From SAR324 cluster bacterium (lineage in GTDB: Bacteria > SAR324 > NAC60-12): a stretch of 64,000 bases of DNA. The notes beneath the pieces are model-generated. The model did no database searches and was not told the DNA's origin. It was given only the letters and a program-made list of their open reading frames with translations. Made by a program: the position numbers and the translations under genes. Below are positions 40-48,650 of the stretch, in pieces; the stretch's first letter is position 1; every line of letters begins with the position of its first letter. Location of the stretch: assembly GCA_015232315.1 (NCBI GenBank), contig JADFZZ010000001.1, forward strand, positions 208,835 to 272,834. The letters run 5' to 3'.

Positions 40-180
40 GCGAGTCCGGAGTTGAAATTTATTCATTAATATCAGTACTCCTTTAGTGTCATCTCGACGT
101 CAGGAGAGATCTTTCAACGCTCAAGGCCTTAAGATTACTCCTGGTGTCGAAATGACACAGACGCAACTCCGGATTCACCT
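40..180. repeat. about 140-bp imperfect palindromic (ERIC/MITE-like) intergenic repeat, family 1 copy A, in the leader of the MCP gene
   Basis: Near-identical copy at 22100..22238. Nested inverted repeats: tccggagt...actccgga, and gtgtcatctcgac...gtcgaaatgacac. Confidence 0.6.
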
Positions 181-199
181 ATTTATTCAGAGGATCATC

Positions 200-16770: not shown

Positions 16771-16782
16771 TTTTAAAAAATG

Positions 16783-16813
16783 GTTGGTTGTCTTGGAAAC
16801 GACAACCAACCTT
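16783..16813 (+). terminator. hairpin downstream of 15607..16770
   Basis: ggttggttgtc-ttggaaac-gacaaccaacc stem-loop followed by a T-rich tract. Confidence 0.4.
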
Positions 16814-17151: not shown

Positions 17152-18957
17152 ATGAAAAAAGTCATAAAAAAAATAATGATATCCTGTTTGGCATTAGGCG
17201 TAATGACCGCATGCCAACCAACCCAGGAAGAGAATCAATTGAATGTTAGCGCTGATAATCAGCAGGGACAGTCTCTCAGTTTTGATAAGTCAATCAGTGT
17301 AGCAGATTCCAGTGAGCGATTGTCTGTCAATCCAGACCTGATTTTTGTGGAAGGATTCAGCAATGGTTTTATGAATACCAACAGTTTTTATACATTAATG
17401 TCTCCCTTGAACAGTATGCTAGGACTCTTTGGAACCAGTGTTGAGGAAATTGTGAGTTCTGTTGCTGGAATCGATTTATCCAGTCAGCCAGGTTATGCGA
17501 AGTGGTATTTCTCAAAATATGCTGACGCATTCCTGGCCCAAGGAAAGGTCAATAAAGTGGGTTATCTCCATTGGGATACGGGTTATAGAATTTTAAGAGA
17601 TGGATTAATAAGCCAAATGGAGGATAACTATAATGGAGCTGGGGCGCCTGGATTACACACCCGGATTCAGCGCATGATGAATGGGACTTATACGGCAAAT
17701 GATGTGAAAAATTTTGATGCATATTGTCCTGGAGCAACTGAAACAGTTACAGAATTTGGCATATCAAATGTTAAAAAATGTAACAATGCCGCCTATAAAC
17801 TTTGTGCTAATGGTTGTATTTTCATGACACACTCCACAGGAGGTCTGGTTTTCGATCGGTTAGTTTATGAAGCTAATCAGGAGAAGCTATATCCGGGAAC
17901 CTACCCTAAACTGGCAGGTGTGTGGGATAAAACCACCATGGCCATTGAAATTTCTTCAGCCGGTGGAGGAACCGAGTTTTCGAACACAGTCATCAACCTA
18001 GTGGTTACTATGTGTAGTGGCGGCACCCAAACGGATCAATTGGTTAACTTTCTTGTAGGAGCCTTGTTCCCGGAATATTCTTGTGTGTCAGGAGGGTTAG
18101 AAACCAACAGCCAAAGGGCTGGTGCAGGTAGAGACTTGATGCCTGCGATTGCTCGTGATGCGACTAATGGAACAAAAGCCAGCTTTGGACGAACACCAAT
18201 TCTTCATATTGCGGGAAATGGAAACATGATGCCAGATGTGGGGATTTTGAGACTGGATTGGATTATTTCTAACAGTTATGGCGGTGCAGGCTATGGAGAT
18301 GGATTGGTTCCTTTAGCTTCTACCTGTGGTGCTAATACGGCAACACCTATCAAGAGTTGTCATCCTAAAGTGAGCCCTACTGGTACAATTGGAACCTATA
18401 GCGCTCCTGCTGGATTGTATACAAACCATCATCCCTTTATCATGACTGGAGAAGGCCATTTGAGCGAAATGAACGCAATTTTCGAAGCTTTGGGTGTGGA
18501 TGATAGTAACTGGGGAACTTATGTGAATCCAATCAACTATGTAGAAGTAGCTTTGAAATCCGGTAATTTGGAGCAAAAAATGGAACAGAGTTTCAGCAAT
18601 AGTGTAGTAGAAGTTCTGGTTCCGCCTCAAGGCTGGGGAAATCCAGAGGTAATGAGAACACAATGTTGGTATGAAACCGGATACGCTGGTGCGGATACAG
18701 CACTGCATACAAATTTGGATACATCCAGTAATTATGGCGGCATGTCCAATCAGGTTGATGACATCACCTGGAGAGGAACCAATACTCGCTATGATTTTTG
18801 GGATTGTGGTGGAAATAAAACGGATTGGTATTATTCCATTACCCAAATGAGCCTTGAAGGGGATGGCGACAGAATGTTCCACCTGTTGAGTAAAAAACTG
18901 GACGCTCGCATGCAACGGGGTGATACGGGACAACAAAACAATATGCAGGTTCAATAA
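17152..18957 (+). CDS. secreted lipoprotein, lipase/esterase-like alpha/beta hydrolase candidate (paralogue A)
   Basis: GGGAGGG RBS; lipobox LALGVMTAC; nucleophile-elbow-like FMTHSTGGLV; acid motif DGLVPLAS; Cys-rich C-terminal half; about 75% identical to 19414..21231. Confidence 0.55.
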   Translation: MKKVIKKIMISCLALGVMTACQPTQEENQLNVSADNQQGQSLSFDKSISVADSSERLSVNPDLIFVEGFSNGFMNTNSFYTLMSPLNSMLGLFGTSVEEIVSSVAGIDLSSQPGYAKWYFSKYADAFLAQGKVNKVGYLHWDTGYRILRDGLISQMEDNYNGAGAPGLHTRIQRMMNGTYTANDVKNFDAYCPGATETVTEFGISNVKKCNNAAYKLCANGCIFMTHSTGGLVFDRLVYEANQEKLYPGTYPKLAGVWDKTTMAIEISSAGGGTEFSNTVINLVVTMCSGGTQTDQLVNFLVGALFPEYSCVSGGLETNSQRAGAGRDLMPAIARDATNGTKASFGRTPILHIAGNGNMMPDVGILRLDWIISNSYGGAGYGDGLVPLASTCGANTATPIKSCHPKVSPTGTIGTYSAPAGLYTNHHPFIMTGEGHLSEMNAIFEALGVDDSNWGTYVNPINYVEVALKSGNLEQKMEQSFSNSVVEVLVPPQGWGNPEVMRTQCWYETGYAGADTALHTNLDTSSNYGGMSNQVDDITWRGTNTRYDFWDCGGNKTDWYYSITQMSLEGDGDRMFHLLSKKLDARMQRGDTGQQNNMQVQ

Positions 18958-18990
18958 ATGAATCAATCAGGCCATTGAGTTCGAATGCGG

Positions 18991-19027
18991 TTTCTGATCA
19001 TAGTATTAGAAACCGCTTTTTGTTTTA
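18991..19027 (+). terminator. Rho-independent terminator after lipoprotein A
   Basis: gcggtttct...agaaaccgc stem followed by TTTTT. Confidence 0.55.
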
Positions 19028-19413
19028 AAGGAATGGCTCATCAATAACATTCCCAACTATAAATAGTCTTCTCCATAGCTGTGCTTTGGCTGGTTGGAGG
19101 CAAATGGGTAAGTTATTTCTGTGCGATTCCAAAGTGGGTTCCATTAGGACTTTTTACGACACAACTTTCTCCAATTGTCAGATTGGATGAAATCTGGAAC
19201 ACTTAACACTGCACCATAATACACTGATATATATCAAAAAATATTAAAATAAATTGAGAGGGAATTGTTAAAGTGTTTGGTGTAAATATTTTCACGACAA
19301 TCAGGTTGCACAAATAGCAATTAAACACTAATTAATAATTAAAAGATTATTTTTCTTACGAAAGACGGTTATGGGGATCGTCTATAAATCCAAATTTTTC
19401 TCTGGAGGGCACA

Positions 19414-21231
19414 ATGAGAGTAATAATCAAAAAAATCATTATAGCAGGTATTGCCTTGGGATTCATGACCGCATGCCAACCACCTCAGGAGCAGGAACAG
19501 CTCAATGTCGCAGATGTTCCTCAACAGGATCAGACAATCAACTTTGACAAAGCTCTGACTTCAGAAGATTCCTCACTTCGTTTGGCTGATTCAGTCAAAC
19601 CTGATATTATCTTTGTAGAAGGGTTTAGTAACGGGTTCATGAACACCGATAGTTTTTACACATTAATGTCGCCATTAAACAGTATGCTTGGACTGTTTGG
19701 AACCAGTGTTCAGGGATTATTAAGTTCTGTTTCTGGAATTGACACATCCAGTCAACCGGCTTATGCAAAATGGTACTTTTCAAAGTATGCCACTGCTTTT
19801 GAAGCTCAGGGCAAAGTCAGTAAAGTGGGTTATTTGCATTGGGATACCGGGCACCGAATTCTGAGAAGTGGTCCACAAACAAGTCAAATGGAAGATAACT
19901 ATGATGGTAAGGGTAATCCAGGACTGCATACCCGTATTAAACGTATGATGAATGGTACTTACACCGCAAATGATGTGAAAAATTTTGATGCGTATTGTCC
20001 GGGTGCGACAGAGACTGTTTCAGAGTTTGGATTAAGCAATGTCAAGAAATGTAATAATCCGGCTTATGCATTGTGTACCAATGGCTGTATGTTCATGACA
20101 CACTCTACTGGTGGACTTGTTTTTGACAGATTGATTTATGAAGCCAATCAGGAAAAACTAGTCGCTGGTTCCTACCCTAAATTGGCTGGTGTCTGGGATA
20201 AGACAACAATGGCCGTTGAAGTTTCTTCAGCAACTGGCGGAACAGAGTTTGCCAATACCGTCATTAATCTTGTTGTTGCCGCATGTAATGGTCCAAGTCA
20301 AACGGATAAACTCGTGATGTTTTTGGTACAGGCACTGTTCCCACAATATGAATGTAATCAGGCAGGACTGACTTATAATGAAATGAAGGCTGGTGCTGGT
20401 TCAGACTTAGTACCAACTGTAGCTCGAGCGGCAAATACAGGTTCTCAATCAAGTTTTGGACGAACCCCGATTCTGCATATTGCTGGAAATGGAAACATGA
20501 TGCCTAACGTCGGCATTCTGCGACTTGACTGGATTATCGCCAATAGTTACGGCGGTGCTGGCTATGGTGATGGTTTGGTGCCTTTAGCATCAACATGTGG
20601 AGCCAACTCAGCAACACCTATTAAAAGTTGTCATCCCAAAGTAAGTCCTACAGGATCTGTTGGTAGCTATAGTGCTCCCGCTGGATTGTTCACGAATCAT
20701 CATCCCTTTGTCATGACAGGGGAAGGTCACTTGAGTGAAATGAACGCGATTTTTGAAGCATTGGGCGTAGATGACAGCAACTGGGGAACCTATGTAAATC
20801 CAATCAACTATCTAGAAGTAGCTTTGAAATCAGGAAATCTGGAAGAGCGGATGGAGAAAAGCTTCAGCAATAGTGTCGTAGAGGTTTTGGTTCCTCCACA
20901 AGGTTGGGGTAATCCTGGACAGGTACGTGATCAGTGCGAACTGGATAGCGGATATGCCGGAGCGGATTCTGCATTAGCAACCAACTTGGACAGCGTGAGC
21001 GATTTTGGTGGAATGTCCAACCAAATGGATGGTTTTACATGGAACCGTGGTGCTGATGTCGGTAATTGTGGAGCGTTTGGATGGTGGGATAAGTATCGAT
21101 ATACTTATACCGTTACCAGTATGAGTTTGGAAGGTTCTGGTGACAGAATGTTCCATCTGTTGAGCAAAAAACTGGATACACGAATGCAACGTGGTGATAC
21201 AGGACAACAAAATAACATGATCGTCCAGTAA
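19414..21231 (+). CDS. secreted lipoprotein, lipase/esterase-like alpha/beta hydrolase candidate (paralogue B)
   Basis: GGAGGG RBS; lipobox IALGFMTAC; same FMTHSTGGLV and DGLVPLAS motifs. The upstream leader (tggggatcRtct) is also duplicated. Confidence 0.55.
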   Translation: MRVIIKKIIIAGIALGFMTACQPPQEQEQLNVADVPQQDQTINFDKALTSEDSSLRLADSVKPDIIFVEGFSNGFMNTDSFYTLMSPLNSMLGLFGTSVQGLLSSVSGIDTSSQPAYAKWYFSKYATAFEAQGKVSKVGYLHWDTGHRILRSGPQTSQMEDNYDGKGNPGLHTRIKRMMNGTYTANDVKNFDAYCPGATETVSEFGLSNVKKCNNPAYALCTNGCMFMTHSTGGLVFDRLIYEANQEKLVAGSYPKLAGVWDKTTMAVEVSSATGGTEFANTVINLVVAACNGPSQTDKLVMFLVQALFPQYECNQAGLTYNEMKAGAGSDLVPTVARAANTGSQSSFGRTPILHIAGNGNMMPNVGILRLDWIIANSYGGAGYGDGLVPLASTCGANSATPIKSCHPKVSPTGSVGSYSAPAGLFTNHHPFVMTGEGHLSEMNAIFEALGVDDSNWGTYVNPINYLEVALKSGNLEERMEKSFSNSVVEVLVPPQGWGNPGQVRDQCELDSGYAGADSALATNLDSVSDFGGMSNQMDGFTWNRGADVGNCGAFGWWDKYRYTYTVTSMSLEGSGDRMFHLLSKKLDTRMQRGDTGQQNNMIVQ

Positions 21232-21257
21232 GTTTTCGATCAATTTCTGATTCTACA

Positions 21258-21296
21258 TGATTTTTGAAGCGGCAATTTCCTGAGTTTGGAAGTTGC
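21258..21296 (+). terminator. Rho-independent terminator after lipoprotein B
   Basis: agcggcaa...ttgccgct stem followed by TTTTT. Confidence 0.55.
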
Positions 21297-21484
21297 CGCT
21301 TTTTGTTTATGCACTATTAGGGGTTGGTCACATTTTCGACAGTATGTCAGAAAACAGTCTTTGATTTATCACCTGGTTTGGGTTTTGTTCCGTAGGGGCA
21401 GACCTGTCTGCCCGGATCAGGGCGAACACACAGGTTCGCCCCTACAATTTGTGGCCGAAAATATGATCCACCCCTACGTATATT

Positions 21485-21565
21485 CCATAATCCTGACTTT
21501 ATGAGGATTCATTCTGATTCTGTCTTTCCTCCATGCCCATCCTGATTTTTTCTGGTCTATGTTTT
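21485..21565. repeat. family-3 repeat (aatcctgactttatgaggattcat...catcctgattttttctgg)
   Basis: Second copy at 23962..24048; partial copy at 22745..22775. Confidence 0.55.
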
Positions 21566-21570
21566 CTAAT

Positions 21571-21763
21571 CTGAAAAAAACTCTTGTTAAGGAACATTCG
21601 AAAAATAACTTGGGACCTTTCAAATTCCGGTTGACAGTTTGTCATCTCGACGAAGGAGAGATCCGGTTCGCCACGCTTGAAGATCCCTCGTCGCTCGTAC
21701 CTCGCTCTGTCGGGATGACACAGGCAAACTGTAAAGTACTTTTTGACTGATTTTGAAAGGTGC
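21571..21763. repeat. family-2 composite palindromic repeat (core acagtttgtcatctcgacgaaggagagatc...ctgtcgggatgacacaggcaaactgt)
   Basis: Inverted copy at 48471..48650. Its first 45 bp (ctgaaaaaaactct...aaaaataactt) recur at 22852..22897. Confidence 0.6.
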
Positions 21764-21831
21764 CCGGCATGACACAAAAACACAGTTTCGCGACAGCGAC
21801 TAAATAAGGATGTTGCTGTCAAACAAGTAAC

Positions 21832-22074
21832 TCATTCTCTCTCCCACTCTTCACGCATCTCCAGAATTTTCTCATCAATTTTGTCGAAGTGAGTGACTCC
21901 ATAGAATTTTTCTGGATCAAACTGTTTTGAAACAGTTTGAGATGGTTGGTTTTCTTCAACCGGTAATACTACTAATTCAACCTTTGAATAGTGAAAATCT
22001 TTAGGAATGTTTATAATTCCTCTCAAATTTTCCAAATCAATTATTTCCCTTAATGCAATCATCTTAATCTCCAA
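21832..22074 (-). CDS. orphan antitoxin-like small protein (AbrB/VapB-like beta-barrel?)
   Basis: 80 aa with ...KVELVVLPVEE... pattern typical of small antitoxins. No cognate toxin follows; repeats occupy that position. TTG start at 22074 or ATG at 22062. Confidence 0.3.
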   Translation of the reverse strand: MEIKMIALREIIDLENLRGIINIPKDFHYSKVELVVLPVEENQPSQTVSKQFDPEKFYGVTHFDKIDEKILEMREEWERE

Positions 22075-22099
22075 TTCTCTGGTTTTCCTATATATACAT

Positions 22100-22238
22100 G
22101 CGAATCCGGTGTTATAATTTATTCATTAATATCAGCTTCGTTCAGTGTCATCTCGACTTCAGGAGAGATCTTTCAACGCTCAAGGCCTTAAGATTTCTCC
22201 TATCGTCGAAATGGCACAGACTTAACTCCGGATCCACA
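22100..22238. repeat. family-1 palindromic repeat copy B
   Basis: About 90% identical over about 139 bp to 40..180. Confidence 0.6.
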
Positions 22239-22642
22239 TATATCTGTGTGAAAGTAATACTCTATCCATTATTCACAGCAAACAAGGTAAAACCAATGCA
22301 TGAACAGATTTCTGGTTTCAAATCTCCAAAGCGTTACTCCCAGATTAACGCCGTCAATTTTCTTCAGCCTCTTCCCTGTGAATTTGAATTTTCCAGTGGA
22401 AATCCTGATTGAGAGCTTTGAAATCAGGAAGATTGAAGCGGCTGAATGACTTGCTTTACCGTGTTAATATCGACCAGTCTTCCTTCATTGTATTTGTGGA
22501 TAATGCTGGTAATCAGAAAATTTAGGTTGACCTGCAACAGTCAACAAAATGAAATTACCAGTGTCTGGGTAAAAACCAATTTTAGAAGTAAAAAATTTCA
22601 TAAATTTAGAGGATTAGCTAAATTTGAAGTAAGGCGGAAGTA

Positions 22643-22768
22643 CTCAAAACATGAATGCGCTATTGGCGAAACGGTGACCATGGCCGGCGCTGGCATGGAT
22701 GGAATTTGCAGAAAATTAATCATTCCCTATTTTGTCTTTAACCCCATAAGAGTCCATCACAATCCTGA
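22643..22768. repeat. 126-bp direct repeat, left copy, bracketing the BrnTA cassette
   Basis: Differs at two positions from 23855..23980. Confidence 0.65.
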
Positions 22769-22818
22769 TTTTATGAGCACCTTTCAGAGAAAATTGATTA
22801 AAAGATTGCTTAACATAT

Positions 22819-23145
22819 GGCTAATGATACATATAACCCAAGTTGTGACCGATCTGAAAAAAACTCTCGTTGAGGAACTTTCGAAAAATAACTTCCATAA
22901 CTTTTCAAAAAATCATTTCCTGCCGGGCATGCGTAGAGATGCGCGATTCGCAGGTCTCTACAGACCTGGGCAAGGGCTGTGTGTTAAAAAACTTTGGGCA
23001 GTTATTCTTTTGTCGTTCCTAAGGGCATTTCACCCAGATTTTGTGTCATCCCCAATGAATATGCGGAATCTTGACCACGATTTGAGCAGTGATTTCTCCC
23101 TTTGGTCAATATGGCACCGTAGGTCACAACTTGGGTTACATATAT
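22819..23145. mobile_element. MITE-like non-autonomous element with 17-20-bp terminal inverted repeats
   Basis: Left end acatataacccaagttgtgacc; right end ggtcacaacttgggttacatatat (reverse complement). No ORF inside. Carries the hairpin cgtagagatgcgcgattcgcaggtctctacag. Confidence 0.45.
22918..22972. repeat. GC-rich hairpin repeat (family 6)
   Basis: tgccgggcatgcgtagagatgcgcgattcgcaggtctctacagacctg; second copy at 45139..45190. Confidence 0.5.
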
Positions 23146-23175
23146 AAATATGGTTAATTATCAGGATGATGCAAA

Positions 23176-23457
23176 GTGGAATTTGAATGGGATGAGGATA
23201 ACAATAAAATCAACAAGGAAAAGCATGGCATCTCATTTTACGATGCTCAATATGCTTTTGCAGATCCCAATCGTATAGTTGCAAAAGATCTCAAACATAG
23301 CCAAATTGAGAAACGATTTTATTGTTTTGGAAAGGTAAAAGAAGAAATTGTAACAGTCAGATTCACTTACCGAGATCATAAAATAAGGATTATTGGCGCA
23401 GGATATTGGCGAAAAGGGAGAAGTACTTATGAACAGCAAAATAAAATACGTGGATGA
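23176..23457 (+). CDS. brnT: BrnT-family (DUF497) ribonuclease toxin
   Basis: GTG start; MEFEWDEDNNKINKEKHGISFYDAQYAF...RIIGA matches the BrnT pattern. Confidence 0.75.
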   Translation: MEFEWDEDNNKINKEKHGISFYDAQYAFADPNRIVAKDLKHSQIEKRFYCFGKVKEEIVTVRFTYRDHKIRIIGAGYWRKGRSTYEQQNKIRG

Positions 23458-23674
23458 ACCAATGGAGTTTGAGGTTGTTGAGGATTTTCTGCCACCCCCT
23501 GTCGATCTTGTGTTTAAGGAAGAGACGATAAAAGTGACAATCAACCTCAACAAATCCAGTGTAAAATTCTTCAAAAAAAAAGCACAGGAAGTTGGGATTC
23601 CTTATCAAAAAATGATTCGTAAAATAGTAGATTTATATGCGAATCGATACAGTGATACGGGAAGCTCTCATTAA
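23429..23674 (+). CDS. brnA: BrnA-family antitoxin
   Basis: 81 aa, overlaps brnT by 29 nt; C-terminal KKAQEVGIPYQKMIRKIVDLYA ribbon-helix-helix-like region. Confidence 0.65.
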   Translation: MNSKIKYVDEPMEFEVVEDFLPPPVDLVFKEETIKVTINLNKSSVKFFKKKAQEVGIPYQKMIRKIVDLYANRYSDTGSSH

Positions 23675-23854
23675 AACTTTAGGAGTGATAATGGCAATGT
23701 CGGAGTCAGTTTGATGTGCGGATGTTTAAGGCTATCAACGAAAGCCGATACACTTTGTAAATTCAATGAATTAGAGAACCCCTGCAAGGTCAGACGGGAC
23801 GTACGATTTTGACTAAAATTTTACGACCATCTGTATCGGGTTAACCTGGTAGCC

Positions 23855-23980
23855 CTCAAAACATGAATGCGCTATTGGCGAAACGGTGACCATGGCCGGC
23901 GCTGGAATGGATGGAATTTGCAGAAAATTAATCATTCCCTATTTTGTCTTTAACCCCATAAGTGTCCATCACAATCCTGA
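23855..23980. repeat. 126-bp direct repeat, right copy, bracketing the BrnTA cassette
   Basis: See 22643..22768; continues into a family-3 repeat at 23962..24048. Confidence 0.65.
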
Positions 23981-24101
23981 CTTTATGAGGATTCATCAGA
24001 ATCCTGTCTTTCCTTCATGCCCATCCTGATTTTTTCTGGCCTATTTTTTCAAAGTCGATAGTTCTATAAAAAACATCCACAATCATCTGAATGGAGTCGC
24101 T

Positions 24102-24566
24102 ATGGGATTGAGTGTTGAAGATAAAAAAGAAGTGGAGGACTTTGTCAAAAACGTCATGCAGTTGAACCAACTGGATGTGCAGGACCTTCAACAGCAATGG
24201 CGAAAATTCAAGGAAGCTCCTGAAGCCAGTTTGGCGGCACTTGAAGTTCAGACATCAGAACTTGGCCGGGAAATTCGGGAATTCAAGCAGGATGTATCAA
24301 AACGTTTTGAGCAGGTGGATAAACGTTTTGAGCAGGTGGATAAACGTTTTGAACAGGTGGATAGACGTTTTGAGCAGGTAGATAAACGTTTTGAGCAGGT
24401 GGATAAACGTTTTGAGCAGGTGCGTCAGCAGTTGGATGATGTCAACAAAACCATGATGCGGCTCCATGAAAGCATGAATGCCCAGGTCTGGAAATTTCTT
24501 GGCGGATTAGGGGTCATTCTCATTTTGTTACGACTGTCCGGCGCAATTTTTCCTAATCTGCCATAA
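24102..24566 (+). CDS. C-terminally membrane-anchored coiled-coil protein with six KRFEQVD heptad repeats (DUF1640-like)
   Basis: GGAG RBS; heptad array KRFEQVDKRFEQVD...; C-terminal TM FLGGLGVILILLRLSGAIF. Confidence 0.6.
   Translation: MGLSVEDKKEVEDFVKNVMQLNQLDVQDLQQQWRKFKEAPEASLAALEVQTSELGREIREFKQDVSKRFEQVDKRFEQVDKRFEQVDRRFEQVDKRFEQVDKRFEQVRQQLDDVNKTMMRLHESMNAQVWKFLGGLGVILILLRLSGAIFPNLP
24300..24425 (+). repeat. 6 x 21-bp near-perfect in-frame tandem repeat (aaacgttttgagcaggtggat)
   Basis: Units at 24300, 24321, 24342, 24363, 24384 and 24405, with 0-3 mismatches each. Confidence 0.85.
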
Positions 24567-24652
24567 GATGACTCTGCATTGAAACGCACCTGTGCTAGTG
24601 AAATATTGTCATTCCATTCATTGTAATCACACAAACAGCGAAGATATCAGAC

Positions 24653-27421
24653 ATGGATTCTTTAACAAAATTCAAACGAAAAGGTTTCAGCGCTCAAGCG
24701 GCCACAACAGAAGACAACATTGGTTTTCAGATCAACTTTGATCAGACAGGAGCCTACCTGTCTGTCATCAACTCGCAGGGAAAAGAGGTCGATCCGGATT
24801 ATCGAAGTTACAGCGGAATCACCCGGGACATACTTCGTCTGATAGCGGATATTCAACTGAGGCAGGAATTTCAGATTGATTGGGATTCTGACAATTCACG
24901 AGTCTATCTGGCCTCTCATGAATCCCTGATTATGAAACTGCGTCTTCATCCCAAAGTTCTCACCGATTCCGGACAATTGATCAGTTTTTCAAGCCATGCC
25001 GCCAAATTGCTTATGGCTGTTGAGGAGAATGCCAAAAAAAAGCTCAGTGGAAAATTGCGACTGCTTCTTGGCGAGGGGGAATCTCCTGAGGTACGCTTTT
25101 TGACAGATTCTCTGGTTCTTTCGGGCACCACTGTTTATGAAATTCCATCCGCGGGAGAACGGTTTGCTGATCTTGCGATGTTTGAATCTGCGTTTCAGGC
25201 CAATGAACTGGAAAATTTTCTGTCCCTGTTTTATTCCCACTTTGCAGACATTCCGATTCGTTATCAGGATTACCAGTGTGTAGAAGGTCCCACCCGTCTG
25301 GCTCAGGCCGCTCTCGTGTTTGAGAAAATAGACCATGAACAAAATCTCTATCTGCGAGTCAGTACGACCGTGGAAGGTCTGGATGCCGATTTCTTTGAGG
25401 AGTATGAAATCAATCGGTTGGTGACACTCAATGAAATGGAACGTGTGATTCAAATATGTCCCCTGGTCGAGGAAAGCTCAGTGGATGCCTTGCGCGAAAT
25501 CAACAGTCTGTTGAACAAGCGAAAGCGCCAACTGAAGACAGACAATGCGGATTTTTACCTGGAAGAGAATCTGTTCATCATTCAGAAAACACTGGCTCAG
25601 GAATTTATCTATCTGGATTTGCCCAATCTCATTGGTCGCTACTCACTGCTCGGTTCTGAAAAACTGAAAGATTACAAGGTACGTGCGGTCACGCCTCGTT
25701 TGAGTCTGGCATTGGCACATGGCATTGATTTTCTGGAAGGCGAGGCCACCCTCGAGATTGAAGGGCAGAGCTTTTCCTTGTTTGAGGCCATCAGCCTTTA
25801 TCGAAAAAAATCCTATATTCCGTTGACCGACGGCACCCATGCCCTGATCAACCAGGGGTATATCGAAAAGCTGGAACGTCTGTTTAAAAAACAGCAGGAT
25901 CAGGTCAAAGTTTCATTCTTTGATCTTCCCGCGATTGAAGAATTGATTGATGAAAAAGCGGCTCAGGCAACCTTTCCACAATCCCGTGAAATTTTCAGGG
26001 GATTCAATGAATTGAAGGATCAAAAAATCAAACTGCCAACCGTCAAGGCTACCTTGCGCCCCTATCAGCAACAAGGGTACAAGTGGCTTGAATATTTGCG
26101 AAAAAACAATCTGGGAGGATGTCTTGCGGATGATATGGGTCTGGGAAAAACAATCCAGACTCTGACCATGCTGGCTGGCGTGTATCCCAAAGAAAAAATG
26201 CCCTCCTTGCTGGTAATGCCTAAAAGTCTGCTGTTCAACTGGCAAAAGGAAATCGAAAAATTTACGCCGAATATCACGTGTTATGTGTTTTATGGCAATG
26301 ATCGGGATATGGCCAAAGCCAAAGAGCACAATCTGATTCTCACCACCTATGCCATGCTACGCAATCAAATTGAACAGTTTTGCGAGGAACAGTTTTATTA
26401 TGTAGTTCTCGATGAATCACAGAATATCAAAAACATTCAGTCCCAGATTTCCAAGGCTGTTCTGCTGTTGAAGGCTCAACACCGTCTGGCCCTGAGCGGT
26501 ACTCCTGTTGAAAATAATTTGGGTGAACTGTATTCCCTGTTTCGGTTTCTCAATCCTGCCATGTTCAATTCCGCTGATGAATTCAACCGGTATTACATTG
26601 CTCCGATTCAGCAAAACAATGATAAACAGGCGATTCATGAGCTTAAAACAAAAATTTATCCCTTTATTTTAAGACGTCTCAAAAAAGATGTGCTCAAAGA
26701 ACTTCCGGACAAGATTGAGCAGGTGTTGTATGTGGATATGTCTGACGAACAAAAACGGCTGTATCACCAACGGCGTGTGTTTTATCAGGATTCGCTGAAA
26801 CAACAGATCGCGGTGAACGGAATCAACAAATCACAATTTTTTATCTTCCAGGCACTGACCGAATTGCGTCAGATCGCATCCATTCCTGAAGCCCAAAGTG
26901 ATGGAGCGATTGTCTCCCCCAAACGGGAATTGTTGCTGGAACAAATCATGGAATCCACCGCCAACCGACACAAGGTGCTCGTTTTCGGCAATTTCCTTTC
27001 AATCCTCGAGCATGTCGGCGAAGATCTTCAGCAGGCCGGAATCCAGTATCTGGTCATGACTGGAGCAACCCAGGACAGAGGTGCTCTGGTGGAACGGTTT
27101 CAGAATGATCCCGACTGCCAGGTTTTTCTCATGACTCTCAAAACCGGCGGTTTGGGGTTGAATCTCACGAAAGCGGATACCATCTTCATTTTTGATCCCT
27201 GGTGGAATCTGGCCGCTGAAAATCAGGCCATAGACCGCAGTCATCGCATTGGACAGGATAAAACAGTGTTCAGCTACAAACTCATCACCCGTGGTTCCAT
27301 CGAAGAAAAAATCCTTCAACTTCAGGAAAAGAAACGGGAACTGTTTGAAAACATCATTTCCAGTGACAGTGCGTCTATTAAATCATTGAATGAAGAAGAT
27401 ATTAATTTCATTCTCAGTTAA
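24653..27421 (+). CDS. SNF2-family (Swi2/Snf2) ATPase with an N-terminal domain of about 450 aa of unassigned function
   Basis: LRPYQQQGYKWL, DDMGLGKT (Walker A), VVLDESQNIKN (DExx), LALSGTPVENNLGELYSLFRFL, and helicase-C motifs towards the C-terminus. Confidence 0.85.
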   Translation: MDSLTKFKRKGFSAQAATTEDNIGFQINFDQTGAYLSVINSQGKEVDPDYRSYSGITRDILRLIADIQLRQEFQIDWDSDNSRVYLASHESLIMKLRLHPKVLTDSGQLISFSSHAAKLLMAVEENAKKKLSGKLRLLLGEGESPEVRFLTDSLVLSGTTVYEIPSAGERFADLAMFESAFQANELENFLSLFYSHFADIPIRYQDYQCVEGPTRLAQAALVFEKIDHEQNLYLRVSTTVEGLDADFFEEYEINRLVTLNEMERVIQICPLVEESSVDALREINSLLNKRKRQLKTDNADFYLEENLFIIQKTLAQEFIYLDLPNLIGRYSLLGSEKLKDYKVRAVTPRLSLALAHGIDFLEGEATLEIEGQSFSLFEAISLYRKKSYIPLTDGTHALINQGYIEKLERLFKKQQDQVKVSFFDLPAIEELIDEKAAQATFPQSREIFRGFNELKDQKIKLPTVKATLRPYQQQGYKWLEYLRKNNLGGCLADDMGLGKTIQTLTMLAGVYPKEKMPSLLVMPKSLLFNWQKEIEKFTPNITCYVFYGNDRDMAKAKEHNLILTTYAMLRNQIEQFCEEQFYYVVLDESQNIKNIQSQISKAVLLLKAQHRLALSGTPVENNLGELYSLFRFLNPAMFNSADEFNRYYIAPIQQNNDKQAIHELKTKIYPFILRRLKKDVLKELPDKIEQVLYVDMSDEQKRLYHQRRVFYQDSLKQQIAVNGINKSQFFIFQALTELRQIASIPEAQSDGAIVSPKRELLLEQIMESTANRHKVLVFGNFLSILEHVGEDLQQAGIQYLVMTGATQDRGALVERFQNDPDCQVFLMTLKTGGLGLNLTKADTIFIFDPWWNLAAENQAIDRSHRIGQDKTVFSYKLITRGSIEEKILQLQEKKRELFENIISSDSASIKSLNEEDINFILS

Positions 27422-27429
27422 GGAATCTT

Positions 27430-29355
27430 ATGGCGGATCTGAATAAAATATTTAAAAAACTCAGTGATATGGGCATCATTGTGGATAAAACTACAGAGGG
27501 TGTCATCATAGACAAGGTCAGTGAGTTACAGGGCATGGCGAAACCAACACAGCAAAAACCGGAAAACCAGCTCTATGCAATGATTTCCTCAAGCTACACC
27601 AAGGCCATTCTCTCTATTCTTTATGAGAAATGGATCAGGAAGCTTATTGACCGTTTTCCCGAATTGTTCAGAAAACATGGTTGTCCTGTCCCCTTGAAGT
27701 ATCCTAACAAGGACCATCTCACCAGGATGCTGCTGGCGGTGTATTCAGAAAAAAAAATGTTTGACGCATTATGGCAGAACCTGCCGGAGGCGGTACGACA
27801 AATTTTTATCTGGACGATCTGGTATAAAAGATTCTGTCATCAGGACATGCTGGCACAAACACTCAAAATCCAGATTTGGCAAACTGCGGATCGCTACTCT
27901 AATGAACACCATATGTATCTGAAACCAGAGTATCTGTTTTTTTCTTATGAAGTTCAGTACAGTTACCTCAGCAACAGAAATACTGAAAAACCACCCTACA
28001 TTTACAACCTGTATTTCAATCCGGAACTGGGAGAATATCTGAAACAATTCTTGCCCACGCCCGACGGTTATGATTTGCATCCAGAGGCCAAGATTCCGGA
28101 ATGCAGGATTCACGAAAACCGGGGTCTGATCCTTCAGGAGTTGCCTGTGTTATGGGCCTATATCCAGCAGGGCCAACTCAAACTTTCCAATAATGGCAAA
28201 ATTCTGAAAGCGTCTCTCAAGGAATTTCAGAAATTGATGCAGGTTCCTGAATTTTTTGAGGAACAGAATCTGAATTCCCTGCGAACGGAAATGCTCACCA
28301 ATCTGCTGGCCTGCATCAAGATCAAGCCGCAATCCGATCCGTTAAAACTCCTTCAACAGGTTTTTGAAAATTATCAGGTAAAAAACACCTACTCTCATCT
28401 GAATGGTTTGTTGTTTCATCTCAAGGGGCGTTCGACTTATCTTTCTCATATTTATTACGAAGAATTCAATCTTGCTCCAATTCTGGTGCAAAGACTGCTT
28501 TCCGCCTTGCCACAGGGGCAATGGGTATCTTTGGAAAATCTGAAGGATTACGCGAATTTAAGGTCGGTTCCCATCCTGAACGTATTGGATCCTTATCATG
28601 CGACACGCTATCTGCATTATATCTCTGGTGAACAGAGCACGTATGAACACAAAAAGTATATCATGCGTGATAATCTTGAATATACCATCAAACAGCCTTT
28701 GATTGCCGGGTCCATGTTCCTGTACGCCTGTCTGGGATTGGTGGACATCGCTTATGATTTCCCCAAAAATGACGTGGTGCAGGAGCGTCAACTGGGTTAT
28801 CTCAGTGTGTTTGATGGATTGCGCTATGTGCGGTTGACGGATCTGGGTGCCTTTCTTACAGGCAAAACTTCAAGTTACAGTGCTCCGGTCATGGCGGTGG
28901 CTCAGACAAAGGTGCTTCTTGATGAAAATCGCCTGATCTGCGGGCTGGATGGCAATGATCCCGTCAAACGCCTGATTCTTGAAAAAATGGCAAAACCCAT
29001 TGCCTTGAATCATTTCAAGGTTGATCATGAATCCTTTCTGAAAGGCTGTGTGACCAAAAAAGATGTTCAGGAAAAGATTGATCTGTTCCACACTCATATC
29101 GAAGGAAAACCACCTGAAATCTGGAAAAACTTTTTTAAACAGACACTCGCCCGCATCAATCCGCTAACCCATAAAAAAGATTTGCTGGTCTTTGAACTGG
29201 AACAGGATCGGGATCTGATTCATTTGCTGGCGACAGACGCAATTCTTAAAAAACACATTTTGAAAGTTGAGAATTTCCACATCGCCATTGAACGGAGTGA
29301 TTATAATAAGGTTAAAAAAAGATTGGAATCGCTGGGTTATCTGTTAACCAATTGA
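27430..29355 (+). CDS. hypothetical protein (641 aa), translationally adjacent partner of the SNF2 ATPase
   Basis: AAGGAA RBS; 8-bp gap after the SNF2 stop; no Zn-finger or nuclease motif recognised. Confidence 0.5.
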   Translation: MADLNKIFKKLSDMGIIVDKTTEGVIIDKVSELQGMAKPTQQKPENQLYAMISSSYTKAILSILYEKWIRKLIDRFPELFRKHGCPVPLKYPNKDHLTRMLLAVYSEKKMFDALWQNLPEAVRQIFIWTIWYKRFCHQDMLAQTLKIQIWQTADRYSNEHHMYLKPEYLFFSYEVQYSYLSNRNTEKPPYIYNLYFNPELGEYLKQFLPTPDGYDLHPEAKIPECRIHENRGLILQELPVLWAYIQQGQLKLSNNGKILKASLKEFQKLMQVPEFFEEQNLNSLRTEMLTNLLACIKIKPQSDPLKLLQQVFENYQVKNTYSHLNGLLFHLKGRSTYLSHIYYEEFNLAPILVQRLLSALPQGQWVSLENLKDYANLRSVPILNVLDPYHATRYLHYISGEQSTYEHKKYIMRDNLEYTIKQPLIAGSMFLYACLGLVDIAYDFPKNDVVQERQLGYLSVFDGLRYVRLTDLGAFLTGKTSSYSAPVMAVAQTKVLLDENRLICGLDGNDPVKRLILEKMAKPIALNHFKVDHESFLKGCVTKKDVQEKIDLFHTHIEGKPPEIWKNFFKQTLARINPLTHKKDLLVFELEQDRDLIHLLATDAILKKHILKVENFHIAIERSDYNKVKKRLESLGYLLTN

Positions 29356-38960: not shown

Positions 38961-40220
38961 ATGACACAAACCTCACAAAAATCACAATCCACCTTGCCTC
39001 TCAGAGGCGTCAGGGTGCTTGATTTCACCCAGAATCTTCCAGGGCCGTATGCCACATTTTTGCTGGCATGTCTGGGAGCCGAAGTGATCAAGGTTGAGCC
39101 TCCCCGTGGAGATGGGGCCAGGGCATTGCCGCCATTTTTTGAAATGGTCAATCGGGGCAAAAAAAGCATGACTGTGGATTTGAACCGGCCTGAAGATCGT
39201 GAAATTCTCTGCTCACTTGTGTCAAGGATGGATGTGGTGGTGGAAGGTTTTCGCCCCGGTGTGATGCAGAAATTCGGATTGAATGGTTCTGCGTTGCTGG
39301 AAATAAATCCAAGACTGATCTATTGCTCCATCAGCGGCTACGGACAAACCGGGCCCCTGTCTGAAACACCGGGTCATGATCTGAATTTTCAGGCTTTTTC
39401 CGGGATGTGCCACATGCAACGTGATGCGTCTGGCATACCTCAACCTGTTGCCATTCCTATGGCCGATTTGTCTTCTTCAATGTCAGCCGTATCCGCCATT
39501 CTTGCGGCACTCTACGCCCGGGAAAAGGAATTCATTGGCCGGATCATTGACATTGCCATGACCGACACCATTTTTTCATGGGTCTGGATCTGGTATCAAG
39601 GACTTCACCCTCAAAACGCTTCCGCAAAGCAGGGAATAGCGTCCGCTGAAAACTGGCTGGATTCACAGAAAAAAGGCGTATTGCATCGGCTTCGTCCCTT
39701 GTTGTCATCGCCCTCTCTGAAAAACTCCCTTGAGCATCTGGAACAGAAAATTCAACACAGTTCGTTCATCAAGGAACTGGAACGCCTTCGACTTCACATT
39801 CTGCCGCATTATAATTTGTATCGCACTAAAGACGGGCATTATCTCAGCATTGGCATTGTGGACGAAGAAAAATTCTGGAAGATTCTTTGCAAAGAGCTCA
39901 ATCTCAATGCGTTTCTCGCTGTTCCTTTGCCGGCAAGGGGGGTGTTAGCATGGCCCCTTCGCAGACAAATCAGGCAACGTATCGCAAAAAAGACGCTTGA
40001 AGAATGGACACAAAAACTGTTTTCAGCGGATCTCCCGGTGTATCCGGTGATTCGCCCGGATGAAGCCGCAAAGAATCTTCAACGTGACAGAAACTCTGTG
40101 ATGGAAAATGGAATCCTGGGGTCCCCGTTTTCATTAGGGCAATGTCCGCCTTCTCCTGCTCCCCGACTAGGAGAACACAATGAAGAAATCCTGGCTTCAC
40201 TGCTCATCCCTGAAAAGTAG
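38961..40220 (+). CDS. CoA-transferase family III (CaiB/BaiF) protein
   Basis: LRGVRVLDFTQNLPGPYATFLLACLGAEVIKVEPP N-terminal signature; ATG 38961 after AGGA. Confidence 0.75.
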   Translation: MTQTSQKSQSTLPLRGVRVLDFTQNLPGPYATFLLACLGAEVIKVEPPRGDGARALPPFFEMVNRGKKSMTVDLNRPEDREILCSLVSRMDVVVEGFRPGVMQKFGLNGSALLEINPRLIYCSISGYGQTGPLSETPGHDLNFQAFSGMCHMQRDASGIPQPVAIPMADLSSSMSAVSAILAALYAREKEFIGRIIDIAMTDTIFSWVWIWYQGLHPQNASAKQGIASAENWLDSQKKGVLHRLRPLLSSPSLKNSLEHLEQKIQHSSFIKELERLRLHILPHYNLYRTKDGHYLSIGIVDEEKFWKILCKELNLNAFLAVPLPARGVLAWPLRRQIRQRIAKKTLEEWTQKLFSADLPVYPVIRPDEAAKNLQRDRNSVMENGILGSPFSLGQCPPSPAPRLGEHNEEILASLLIPEK

Positions 40221-40278
40221 GGGCGACCGGCCGGTCGCCCCAGTCCCATTATTTCTACCAATAATTTACAGGAACCTT

Positions 40279-44290: not shown

Positions 44291-45091
44291 ATGATAGCAC
44301 CGGACATAAAACATAAAATCATCCGGAATTTTTCCCTGCATGCCCGGGAATATGAGAATCATGCGGATTTTCAAAAATATTCGGCAAACCAGTTTTTTTC
44401 CCGTTGCGAGCCGATTCTTCCCTTATGTACACAGCATCCTGTGCTGGAGATTGGCTGTGGAACAGGGTTTGTTTCAGAAATTCTTTTGTCAGCCGCACCA
44501 GACCACCATCTCGAAATCACGGATATCTCACCTGCCATGTTGAGACAATGTCAGGAACGTCTCCTGAGTCGGCAAATTCCCATTAATCATGCGAAATTTT
44601 ATCAACTGGATGGTGAAAAACTGGACACCAGGGAGCATTATGGCCTGATCTTGTCCAATCTTACGTTTCAATGGTTTCTTGATTTTTCCGGGTCACTGGA
44701 AAAACTGATGAAGGCCTTACGTCCCGGGGGATGGTTGGTTTTTTCTGTTCCGGGAAGTGGTTGTTATCCTGAGTGGAAACAGGCATGCATGGCACTCCAT
44801 CTGTCTGTCACGGCCAACAGTCTTCCTGATTTAACGGCCCTCACAAAACAAATGCAACCCCACTCTGCCGGGATTCACCTGGAGCAGATGGAATATACAG
44901 AATGGCACCCCTCCGCCAGAGCTTTTTTCCATAGTCTCAAAGCAATTGGAGCCGCGACCAGCCTTGGTTCGGTCAGGCTGTCGCCTTCAGAATTCAGACG
45001 TTTGCTGGAATATCTGGACGGTCAGGCCTCTGACCGGGGAATACCGGTGACCTACGAATTGGGGATATTCACGCTTCAGAAGCAGGCGTAG
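44291..45091 (+). CDS. bioC: malonyl-ACP O-methyltransferase BioC-like SAM-dependent methyltransferase
   Basis: LEIGCGTGFVS SAM motif I; HAREYENHADFQKYSA N-terminus resembling BioC. Confidence 0.55.
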   Translation: MIAPDIKHKIIRNFSLHAREYENHADFQKYSANQFFSRCEPILPLCTQHPVLEIGCGTGFVSEILLSAAPDHHLEITDISPAMLRQCQERLLSRQIPINHAKFYQLDGEKLDTREHYGLILSNLTFQWFLDFSGSLEKLMKALRPGGWLVFSVPGSGCYPEWKQACMALHLSVTANSLPDLTALTKQMQPHSAGIHLEQMEYTEWHPSARAFFHSLKAIGAATSLGSVRLSPSEFRRLLEYLDGQASDRGIPVTYELGIFTLQKQA

Positions 45092-45138
45092 GAACACTCA
45101 AAAATTAGAATAGAAAACTTTCCAAAAATATTTCTTCT

Positions 45139-45190
45139 GCCAGGCACACGTAGAGACGCGCGATTCGCACGTCTCTACAGATCTGAAAAT
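45139..45190. repeat. GC-rich hairpin repeat (family 6) between convergent bioC and trmJ-like
   Basis: ctgccaggcacacgtagagacgcgcgattcgcacgtctctacagatctg; may act as a bidirectional terminator. Confidence 0.5.
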
Positions 45191-45211
45191 GGAGGTTGCT
45201 TGATACTAAAA

Positions 45212-45979
45212 CTAATACAATTTATTCTTTTGCTGTTCCATAGAAGCGGGCTGACTTTGCTGATCGAGTGCCCAACGGGTTTGCCTGATCATTCCCCGTA
45301 GCAAGGCGAGATCGTCAGGTGATGGTTGAGCACGGAACAGCATCCGGCGGATTTTGTTCATGCGGGCTTCAACGGTATGGGGATACAAATAGCCAATTTC
45401 CAGTAGCAATTCTGAAAGATGCTCCAGAAAATGATTCATATCCGTCACAGGAGCCAGAGTTTGAGCCTGCCCGGACTGTTCCTCCGGATGATCCGAAGTC
45501 GTGGCTTGTTCGGCGCAAAACCAGCGGTAGCAGCAAATTCCTACGGATTGAGCAAGATTGAGTGTGGAAAATTCAGGCGATGCGGGTATGTGGATCCAGT
45601 GCTGGGCCCATTGCAGTTCTTCGTTGCTCAACCCCCGGTCTTCAGCGCCGAATAAAATCCCTGAAGGCTGATTTTGTGAGATGATCCGGTTAAAAATCGG
45701 GTCTGGTTCCAGCATGGTTTCCTGGATCTGCCTTGATTTCGCAGTGGTAGCCATCACGGTCGAGCATCCTTCCAGAGCCTCCGCCATTGTTGATACACAA
45801 CGAATTTCCCGCAGAATATCCGCTCCATGTGTCGCCATATTGAACGCCTCCTGTGAGTGAACATCACAGCGTGGATTCACGGCGATCAAAGAATCAAAAC
45901 CGAAATTTTTCATGACACGGGCAATGGATCCTACATTCAGGGGCCCCTGGGGTTCTACAAGGACAATACGGGGTTTCAT
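45212..45979 (-). CDS. SpoU/TrmH-family RNA 2'-O-methyltransferase (TrmJ-like)
   Basis: IVLVEPQGPLNVGSIARVMKNFG N-terminal SpoU motif; ATG 45979 (TTG at 45985 in the ORF track). Confidence 0.7.
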   Translation of the reverse strand: MKPRIVLVEPQGPLNVGSIARVMKNFGFDSLIAVNPRCDVHSQEAFNMATHGADILREIRCVSTMAEALEGCSTVMATTAKSRQIQETMLEPDPIFNRIISQNQPSGILFGAEDRGLSNEELQWAQHWIHIPASPEFSTLNLAQSVGICCYRWFCAEQATTSDHPEEQSGQAQTLAPVTDMNHFLEHLSELLLEIGYLYPHTVEARMNKIRRMLFRAQPSPDDLALLRGMIRQTRWALDQQSQPASMEQQKNKLY

Positions 45980-48470: not shown

Positions 48471-48650
48471 GTGCACCGTTCAAAATCAGTCACAAGTACT
48501 TTACAGTTTGCCGGTGTCATCCCGACAGAGCGAGGTATGAGCGACGAGGGATCTTGAAGCGTGGTGAACCGGATCGCTTCTTCGTCGAGATGACAAACTG
48601 TCAACCGTGATTTGAAAAGTGCCAAAGATTTCAGTGATTTTTCAGAGCAT
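48471..48650. repeat. family-2 palindromic repeat, inverted copy
   Basis: Reverse complement of 21571..21763 at about 90% identity. Confidence 0.6.

Follow-up and report, generated by a model that had tools for sequence, protein, structure and literature searches.

What is a stretch of bacterial chromosome made of in which hardly any gene can be recognised and one repeat follows another, and how does it come about? The question is raised by positions 21240-24100 of a 64-kb piece of DNA from a SAR324 cluster bacterium, a metagenome-assembled genome (MAG; GCA_015232315.1, contig JADFZZ010000001.1), where a mosaic of repeats lies between an array of lipoprotein-like paralogues and a helicase module. 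Herein the whole 64-kb piece is called the window; all coordinates refer to it unless another locus is named, and the copies and dispersal of each repeat family are those seen within it, not genome-wide. The window was compared with about 50 kb of orthologous sequence (loci L158-L161, 97-99.5% identical) from a sister genome, the MAG GCA_015231535.1, and at the mosaic locus the two are about 98-99% identical. Our analysis leads to the view that the mosaic is probably a permissive AT-rich variable slot, in which decayed and nested small non-coding palindromic elements share the place with toxin-antitoxin cassettes. Seen in this way the region is an ordinary kind of variable region, and its repeats belong to known kinds, namely miniature transposable elements with inverted repeats (MITEs) and hairpins like the repetitive extragenic palindromic (REP) sequences and bacterial interspersed mosaic elements (BIMEs).

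The surroundings of the mosaic are those of an ordinary bacterial chromosome, with genes for chemotaxis, LytB, RecC, PpiD, RodA, GltX and the flagellar rod; no tRNA gene was found in the window, and a Pfam scan of its ~47 long open reading frames (ORFs) detected no Y1, DDE, transposase or integrase domain. The GC content is low, 0.38 at 22-24 kb vs about 0.45 for the whole window. The first-pass annotation of this DNA had described a region tiled by repeats with almost no credible long ORF, and suggested a recombination hotspot or a graveyard of small non-autonomous elements. In fact the repeats it listed are all real and lie essentially where it placed them (self-comparison and blastn, E 8e-12 to 9e-62), but by our own tally only about 45% of the interval 21240-24100 is repeat, and about 27% is gene or gene relic. 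As for the ORFs, a 233-aa frame (22446-23147) which crosses repeats and has no Pfam match is taken to be spurious, in agreement with that description, while the toxin-antitoxin genes of the mosaic, namely brnT, brnA and an annotated 76-aa ORF, had been missed. A tblastn search for pseudogene remnants of the flanking genes inside the mosaic found none, and about 400 bp of anonymous AT-rich DNA separates family 1 copy B from the direct repeat D5a. As a whole the earlier interpretation is partly supported, being right in large part and incomplete.

Five palindromic units bounded by terminal inverted repeats (TIRs) were found in the mosaic: element E, one copy each of families 1, 2 and 5, and a 322-bp composite unit (Table 1). 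All of them fold into long hairpins, with z from -3.0 to -4.7, and their termini are of several types, family 1 having GAATCCGGAGTT arms and the others ending in AACCCAAGTTGTGACC, TAGGGGTNGGNCANATTTTCG or AGGAAC...GTTCCT. Second copies of families 1, 2 and 5 are located 22-27 kb away, all of them intergenic, in both orientations and 77-92% identical to the copies in the mosaic, and because of this low identity the insertions are considered old. For example, the two copies of family 1 (22100-22241 and 40-182) are 87% identical (E 3e-43), and the hairpin pattern of family 5 has two matches where none is expected. The 322-bp unit, already suspected to be MITE-like, has a TIR pair (22822-22850 / 23122-23150) of 86% identity over 29 nt, and directly outside its TIRs there is an 11-bp target site duplication (TSD), ATATGGCTAAT (22815-22825) and ATATGGTTAAT (23148-23158), with 10 of 11 positions identical; we estimate the chance of such a match at these flanks at about 1e-5. 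The GC-rich hairpin repeats reported before are also real; they lie at 21392-21445 and 22933-22961 and have further copies at 45150-45178 and 40217-40241. The extent of family 2 needs a correction, since 21610-21763 stands as its copy but the preceding 21571-21609 belongs to a separate 43-nt module, which occurs again at 22852-22894 (93% identical). NCBI annotates no gene on these units, as deduced from the consecutive accessions MBF0349562-64; the ORFs crossing them have no Pfam match, and a protein search with the translation of family 2 gave no candidates. JGI metagenomes scanned with a 28-mer from the loop of family 1 gave 0 matches, and the lineage is therefore not represented in them at that stringency.

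Table 1. Elements, genes and gene relics of the mosaic, with their related copies elsewhere in the window
Feature	Position	Strand	Description
Intrinsic terminator of the upstream 605-aa gene	21266..21302	+	15-bp stem followed by a T-run; terminator scan
Element E	21318..21476		Palindrome of ~160 bp; TIRs of ~21 nt, TAGGGGTxGGxCAxATTTTCG; DNA fold -30.3 kcal/mol, z -4.3
REP doublet (REPIN/BIME-like), enclosed in element E	21392..21445		GTAGGGGCAGACCTGTCTGCCC, 6-nt spacer, inverted GTAGGGGCGAACCTGTGTGTTCGCCC; each with 5' GTAG, then an 8-bp GC stem; fold z -4.3
Family 3 copy a	21486..21569	+	Unstructured 84-bp direct repeat; 88-90% identical to 23970-24053, E 7e-25; fold z -0.7
43-nt module M43a	21569..21611	+	93% identical to 22852-22894; its 3' half (AGGAAC...) is a family 5 left terminal repeat and abuts family 2
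Family 2 copy A	21610..21764	+	155-bp palindrome; TIRs 21612-21627 / 21749-21764; fold z -3.0; core hairpin 21639-21721 of GTCATCTCGAC type (covariance-model match E 4e-6)
PIN (VapC-like) toxin remnant	21800..21835	-	11 codons, MSYLFDSNILI, then stop; the other 346 bp deleted here, kept in the sister
Orphaned 76-aa antitoxin-like ORF	21832..22062	-	100% identical to NCBI MBF0349562.1, hypothetical protein HQM11_00935
Family 1 copy B	22100..22241	+	142 bp; TIRs GCGAATCCGGTGTT / AACTCCGGATCCAC; core hairpin 22145-22217; fold z -3.4; covariance-model match E 1e-11
Direct repeat D5a	22636..22788	+	135-153 bp; ends with the first ~20 nt of family 3; fold z +0.9
322-bp composite MITE	22826-23147 (with flanks 22815..23158)		Outer TIRs with core AACCCAAGTTGTGACC; fold z -3.8
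Family 5 copy A	22873..23022	+	Nested in the composite MITE; palindrome of ~150 bp, AGGAAC...GTTCCT, around hairpin GTAGAGATGCGCGATTCGCAGGTCTCTAC (22933-22961)
Degenerate fifth copy of the GTCATC-type core hairpin (tentative)	23043..23117	+	Right arm GATTTCTCCCTTTGGTCAATATGGCAC, ~23/27 of the consensus; by eye
brnT toxin gene	23176..23457	+	93 aa, GTG start; Pfam PF04365, E 4.7e-23, above cut-off; PDB 7vd7 'toxin', E 1e-7; NCBI 'BrnT family toxin' MBF0349563.1
brnA-like antitoxin gene	23429..23674	+	81 aa; Pfam PF12441 CopG_antitoxin, E 5e-4, below curated cut-off; NCBI 'CopG family transcriptional regulator' MBF0349564.1
D5b and family 3 copy b	23848..24053	+	D5b (23848-24000) runs into family 3b (23970-24053); directly upstream of a coiled-coil gene starting at 24102
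Family 1 copy A	40..182	+	Outside the mosaic, upstream of a methyl-accepting chemotaxis protein gene; covariance-model match E 1e-12
Single REP-like hairpin GTAGGGGCGACCGGCCGGTCGCCCC	40217..40241	+	At a CoA-transferase gene's stop codon; same sequence in the sister
Family 5 copy B	45090..45242	+	Outside the mosaic, between convergent methyltransferase genes and overlapping both 3' ends; aligns with copy A over both arms
Family 2 copy B	48473..48625	-	Outside the mosaic; reverse complement 92% identical to 21610-21763 (E 2e-57)

Such features recall the bacterial MITEs, whose anatomy is known from examples such as Correia/NEMIS, RUP, ERIC, Chunjie, Nezha and the QMITEs (PMC10969869, PMC2229807). 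Like these, the mosaic units are short (142-322 bp) and non-coding, carry TIRs and can fold as a whole into hairpins; they are intergenic and sometimes overlap gene ends, their copies have decayed in size and sequence, and one of them has its 11-bp TSD. Unlike these, they have no identified parent insertion sequence with matching TIRs, each dispersed family is seen in two copies in 64 kb, and the units are modular, in that the same shell arm (AGGAAC..., M43) stands beside two different cores and one core is found in different shells. Modules of this sort are also familiar from Streptococcus pneumoniae, with its BOX elements, and from other intergenic repeats of mosaic build, where short modules occur in varying order and number at each locus; the likeness is one of architecture only, with no sequence relation.

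Family 3 and the repeat D5 are of another nature. Their folds are no better than those of shuffled sequences (z -0.7, -1.2 and +0.9), and apart from the orthologous piece neither the rest of the window nor the sister loci yielded a further copy; they are therefore regarded as local duplications and not as dispersed elements. The two D5 copies, spaced 1212 bp apart, are 98% identical over a core of 135 nt (22643-22777 vs 23855-23989, E 9e-62) and 93% over 153 nt (22636-22788 / 23848-24000). A possible kinship of the 135-bp repeat with the element E TIR was also considered and dropped, as the score of 20.5 is not significant against a shuffle mean of 14.9 with a standard deviation of 2.8. One may then ask whether all the repeats are merely scars of local duplication and recombination, left by segmental duplication or gene conversion with no mobility involved. 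The confinement of the unstructured family 3 and 135-153-bp repeats to this locus would fit such an origin, and so would the neighbouring tandem paralogues, which are 76% identical and rearranged relative to the sister; but it does not account for families 1, 2 and 5, whose second copies are found in unrelated intergenic contexts and in both orientations, nor for the TIRs, the TSD of the 322-bp unit and the recurrence of the hairpin cores in other phyla, and we consider it improbable as an explanation of the mosaic. The first-pass annotation had itself named uniqueness to this locus as the mark of local duplication, which is what is seen for family 3 and D5 and not for families 1, 2 and 5. In this sense its graveyard of non-autonomous elements holds for most families, given their distant diverged copies, TIRs, hairpin folds, the one TSD and the absence of a transposase from the 64 kb, and fails for family 3 and the 135-bp repeats.

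Besides the MITE-like units, the variable slot contains hairpins of a second kind, headed by GTAG. A REP is recognised as an imperfect palindrome with a conserved 5' GTAG (PMC3479197), and two REPs in inverted orientation make up a hairpin doublet named REPIN (PMC3337134). In the window, GTAGGGGCAGACCTGTCTGCCC, GTAGGGGCGAACCTGTGTGTTCGCCC and GTAGGGGCGACCGGCCGGTCGCCCC are all imperfect palindromes of about 20-40 nt with a 5' GTAG, and the first two (21392-21413 and 21420-21445) form an inverted doublet, of which another example is found in the sister locus L160. Altogether the 64 kb contain three hairpins of the GTAGGGGC type and two of the GTAGAGA type, where a REP/REPIN-RAYT system would have tens to hundreds of copies per genome and a single-copy RAYT gene with REPs on its flanks. 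They share with the REP, BIME and REPIN sequences of Escherichia coli and Pseudomonas, which are mobilised by RAYT (REP-associated tyrosine transposase, or TnpA-REP), the short extragenic imperfect palindrome, the occurrence as singlet and as inverted doublet with a short spacer, the combination with other conserved modules as in BIMEs, and a relic of the RAYT family in the lineage. They differ in that their stems are unrelated to the enterobacterial and pseudomonad REPs, the window has no RAYT, the sister's RAYT is a pseudogene with a doublet inside it, and the doublet of the mosaic is enclosed in a larger TIR shell, element E.

The RAYT relic itself is located in the sister at L160 8326-8922, where it matches NCBIfam NF047646 'REP-associated tyrosine transposase' (E 1.4e-17) and Pfam Y1_Tnp PF01797 (E 1.7e-6). 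An in-frame stop stands upstream of it, and a GTAGGGGCGACC REP doublet, GTAGGGGCGACCCGCCGGTCGCCC...GGGCGACCCGCCGGTCGCCCCTAC, interrupts it in frame; when the doublet was removed and the stop replaced by hand, the sequence had 7975 homologues, many of them named RayT. The slot in question, between the genes of adenylylsulphate (APS) kinase and recC, is occupied in the window (32955-33662) by a VapB-like/PIN pair (33045-33658) and in the sister (L160 8209-8938) by the decayed RAYT. As the sister carries this decayed gene, the REP interpretation gains support, and the lineage has probably had the class of enzyme that mobilises GTAG hairpins. A RAYT homologue from Methylocaldum (P0016) was tried as a guide to the hairpin type of its clade and was uninformative, for it lies inside a type I restriction-modification operon without flanking intergenic DNA.

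Families 1 and 2 have in common a core hairpin built of two boxes, GTCATCTCGAC ... GGAGAGATCT, with the shared form GTCATCTCGAC...GTCG(A/G)(A/G)ATG(A/G)CAC, and its sites in the window are 86-158, 21639-21721, 22145-22217 and 48514-48596. The four matches of the two-box pattern cannot be ascribed to chance because 100 shuffles gave none, and a covariance model of the core found 4 sites in the 64 kb and none across unrelated metagenome loci totalling 966 kb; the degenerate fifth copy of Table 1 was not detected by it. Moreover, among 185,579 species represented by one genome each, the core was found at 76 loci where by our own calculation about one is expected by chance, and most of these show the full form, namely GTCATCTCGAC, 3-5 variable base pairs, GGAGAGATCT, a loop and the mirror image. 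Intact boxes are carried by members of seven phyla or more (Gammaproteobacteria, Desulfobacterota, Myxococcota, SAR324, Bacteroidota, Patescibacteria and Chloroflexota), while Acidobacteriota have variants with changed interiors; the carriers include Thiotrichaceae, methanotrophs and the cultured Pontibacter, Flavobacterium and Cesiribacter. There is usually one core hairpin per 8 kb, surrounded by a TIR shell specific to the lineage, and for example in Flavobacterium azizsancarii five tandem copies follow one another with a 100-bp period (L047 5398-5986). In 69 of 77 loci the hairpin is not covered by a long ORF, and the genes next to it in the 77 loci are ordinary ones; inspection by eye of the small adjacent ORFs revealed no obvious transposase. 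The boxes are invariant and the 3-5-bp spacer covaries, with 95.7% of cells paired, six pairs with double changes and none of 500 shuffles reaching the observed score; even within the single genome of Thiotrichaceae NORP24, one shell carries the spacers CTAC/GTAG or CAAC/GTTG.

Such conservation raises the possibility that the palindromic units are primarily functional elements of the host, acting as small RNAs, as hairpins that stabilise or attenuate mRNA at the 3' end, or as protein-binding sites. The stability of the hairpins, the invariant boxes with a covarying spacer, also within NORP24, and the location of copies at gene ends or upstream of genes are what one would expect, and REPs are known to have been co-opted for such roles (PMC3479197). 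On the other side, Rfam 15 at the gathering score gave 0 matches in the window, where the best in the mosaic at E up to 1 reached 15 bits, and over 18 core-hairpin loci it left the hairpin unmatched and found only 6S RNA and tRNAs elsewhere in the loci; at lax thresholds only sub-threshold models of eukaryotic miRNA precursors appeared. In addition the hairpins have no following T-tract, the spacers of the window copies are decayed with unpaired positions, the orientation to the neighbouring genes is inconsistent, and complementary arms are expected of any palindromic transposon. A primary host function is accordingly thought unlikely, and we treat the core as a REP/MITE-like recognition module to which no gene partner has been linked so far.

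No vector for the spread of the core across phyla was found, as the scans of 2.9 million viral contigs (one match, and 0 for the GTAGAGA hairpin) and of 72,556 plasmids (no match to the core consensus) were nearly empty, and a search of the literature with the hairpin sequence turned up primers only. At four loci from Patescibacteria, Prevotellaceae and viruses (L037, L075, L076 and L077), the variants GTCATTTCGAGCCTGTCGAGAAATCTC, GTCATCTCGAGCGTAGTCGAGAGATCTC and GTCACCCTGAGCGTTAGCGAAGGGTCTC stand beside the core hairpin, which hints at a wider superfamily of 'GTCAY...GA...ATC' palindromes. That the two-box core is an undescribed pan-bacterial palindromic module of its own is a tentative idea, which we regard as possible and rather doubtful.

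The other occupants of the slot are toxin-antitoxin genes. The brnA-like gene overlaps brnT by 29 nt, and the two have the make-up of a BrnT/BrnA pair, whose operon is intact as judged from its sequence; neither gene has a cluster mate in the sister at 90% identity or more. On the other strand only the beginning of a PIN toxin gene remains in front of its orphaned partner, while the sister has an intact 127-aa PIN gene (PF01850, E 3e-10) with a 4-nt overlap between it and the antitoxin gene. Of 5.8 billion proteins, just the sister's copy is homologous to the 76-aa antitoxin-like protein, which was negative in Pfam, NCBIfam and PADLOC; the latter two, applied to the small ORFs, added nothing. 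Besides this protein, ten others of the window match consecutive accessions of the source contig exactly. These genes resemble the known type II systems (BrnT/BrnA and VapB/VapC-PIN) in the arrangement of brnT followed by an overlapping CopG/ribbon-helix-helix gene and in the 4-nt overlap preserved in the sister, and they resemble the toxin-antitoxin cargo of other variable regions in their presence or absence and toxin-only deletions between close relatives; they are unlike them in the 76-aa protein without a detectable family and in a brnA that stays under the Pfam cut-off. Elsewhere in the window, 38248-38896 encodes a Phd/YefM-like antitoxin and a PIN-like toxin, and a 406-bp part of this toxin gene (38495-38900) is deleted in the sister at a GGTCA microhomology, a loss which mirrors the one inside the mosaic. 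A ParE-like toxin gene (57351-57620; PF24732, E 4e-16) is also present, with a small upstream partner ORF (region 57091-57768), and two 85-bp tandem repeat units (57596-57768), whose start it overlaps, both end in a GC-rich stretch.

Toxin-antitoxin modules are typical cassettes of chromosomal integrons. Together with the low GC content and with the direct repeats of 84-153 bp that bracket the toxin-antitoxin segments in the order family 3a ... D5a ... D5b and family 3b, this could suggest an array of integron-like cassettes or what is left of an integrated island, with family 3 and D5 serving as attC or att sites. The explanation is extremely unlikely: given the z values above, these repeats are not the imperfect palindromes that attC sites are, no integrase was found among the window ORFs, the genes lie on both strands, and a reading of the repeats brought no R''/R' core sites to light, although no formal search for them was made.

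The comparison with the sister genome shows how unstable the variable slot has been. The sister lacks 21530-21670 of the window (141 bp), so that the first 53 bp of the family 3a side (the stretch 21477-21529) are kept and the right half of family 2 (from 21671) is fused to the truncated family 3. As half a palindrome cannot be an insertion, the difference is a deletion in the sister, and the arrangement of family 3, M43 and family 2 therefore predates the split. In the opposite direction, the window lacks the 346 bp that encode most of the sister's PIN toxin. The window alone has a 942-bp segment (47754-48695), with a 239-aa tetratricopeptide-repeat-like ORF and family 2 copy B, directly upstream of the rodA start and with GTTA at both ends. 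The homology with the sister begins exactly at 21477, the right end of element E; to the left of it the sister has different paralogues and a rearranged flank, including a chimeric gene whose N-terminus is 97% identical to the 433-aa protein of the window and whose C-terminus is 37% identical to p392, and a cytochrome c' block that is inverted relative to the mosaic. Microhomologies of TAA, GGTCA and GTTA are found at the deletion junctions. By contrast with these changes, family 1 copy A (at an orthologous site), family 5 copy B and the REP singlet are common to both genomes; family 5 copy B has 7 substitutions in 161 bp, vs 1.5% in the flanking genes, and its hairpin itself is identical. The 141-bp deletion through family 2, the 346-bp deletion of a toxin gene, the rearranged left flank and the contig breaks of the sister inside repeats all support the recombination hotspot proposed at first pass. 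In our reading, the small-element insertions would be old and recent change would be dominated by deletion and rearrangement, for which a graveyard combined with a hotspot fits better than active transposition. As separate matters, the last 74 bp of a sister contig (L161 18751-18824) match 4766-4839 of the window at 95%, about 6 kb off the collinear position, and could represent a further short repeat or the chimeric end of a contig; and an empty-site comparison through SNF2 homologues in metagenomes was uninformative on the mosaic, as the relatives are 47-63% identical and upstream synteny is not conserved, but these loci supplied the 966 kb of negative control for the hairpin model.

The breaks of the sister contigs, one at 22143 within family 1 and the other at 24748, where the sequence resumes within the helicase gene, also suggest that part of the mosaic could be an artefact, a chimeric join of repeats in a MAG, for which the 135-bp repeats, at 98% identity and near the typical k-mer length, would offer an occasion. 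We hold this to be very unlikely, since the source contig measures 377,665 bp, the sister assembly independently shows the left half (21477-21529 and 21671-22143) with its parts in unchanged order at 94-99% identity, and the repeat copies are not identical and differ by substitutions.

How the variable slot with its palindromic elements and toxin-antitoxin cassettes came into being can be pictured as follows, in an order of events that we infer. Two kinds of element would accumulate, the MITE-like units with TIRs and the REP/REPIN-like hairpins with a 5' GTAG, and because they encode nothing they would be moved in trans by transposases encoded elsewhere, presumably a DDE-type enzyme for the unit with the 11-bp target duplication and, for the hairpins headed by GTAG, a HUH tyrosine transposase of RAYT type. 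Their preferred landing places would be non-essential, AT-rich DNA and each other. Together with the toxin-antitoxin genes, themselves dispensable, the repeats would then become substrates for deletions at microhomologies, local duplications (84-bp and 135-153-bp) and rearrangements, which would explain the fragmented ORF landscape.

Several points weigh against this picture and lower our confidence in it. Element E and the 322-bp composite unit are single copies in the window, families 1, 2 and 5 have two copies each, and no family exceeds two. The TSD of the 322-bp unit is the only convincing one; the direct repeats flanking family 1 are offset, AT-rich and ambiguous, and none was seen at family 2, at family 5 or at element E. 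A cognate transposase whose ends match those of the units was not identified; the RAYT relic is in the sister and not in the window, where no RAYT was found, with its REPs inside rather than flanking, its NF047646 score of 63.9 bits is under the curated cut-off of 80, and no intact copy was found in the window or the sister loci examined. Family 3 and the 135-bp repeats are without mobile-element features. Between window and sister, no small element was seen to be cleanly present in one and absent from the other, family 2 copy B differing only as part of the 942-bp segment, and the right half of the mosaic (22144-24747) comes from a MAG without independent assembly support.

The neighbours on both sides have peculiarities of their own. 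To the left (13458-21231), secreted or lipoprotein-like paralogues stand in tandem (619 and 605 aa, 76% identical, with a 2271-bp period and no Pfam match), and the sister locus L158 holds a different set of paralogues at the counterpart, including a chimeric 613-aa gene, with the cytochrome c' block inverted. To the right, the coiled-coil gene contains six in-frame 21-bp tandem repeats (24281-24443) encoding KRFEQVD heptads. Farther on (24653-29355), an SNF2-family helicase, whose domain matches the PADLOC models of the DpdE and ZorD helicases, is followed by a 641-aa protein without a known domain, and the pair is kept in 70 of 80 metagenome loci; it may be an uncharacterised two-gene defence-like module.

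To sum up, the result accounts for the non-coding and broken look of the 2.9-kb stretch, labels its long ORFs as spurious and identifies three real or relic toxin-antitoxin genes, at a locus where assemblers and annotators will struggle. If the two-box core is a real unit, it would point to a widely shared or horizontally spreading enzyme which recognises the two invariant boxes, or to a conserved function at the DNA or RNA level; should it turn out to be an element of its own, it would lend itself to asking how palindromic DNA of very small size spreads or persists across distant bacteria. For SAR324, the locus documents the pile-up and erosion of small palindromic elements and toxin-antitoxin cassettes in a variable slot: between genomes only about 1-3% apart, toxin genes were lost independently at two toxin-antitoxin loci, and at a third site a RAYT relic in one stands where a VapBC pair is found in the other.

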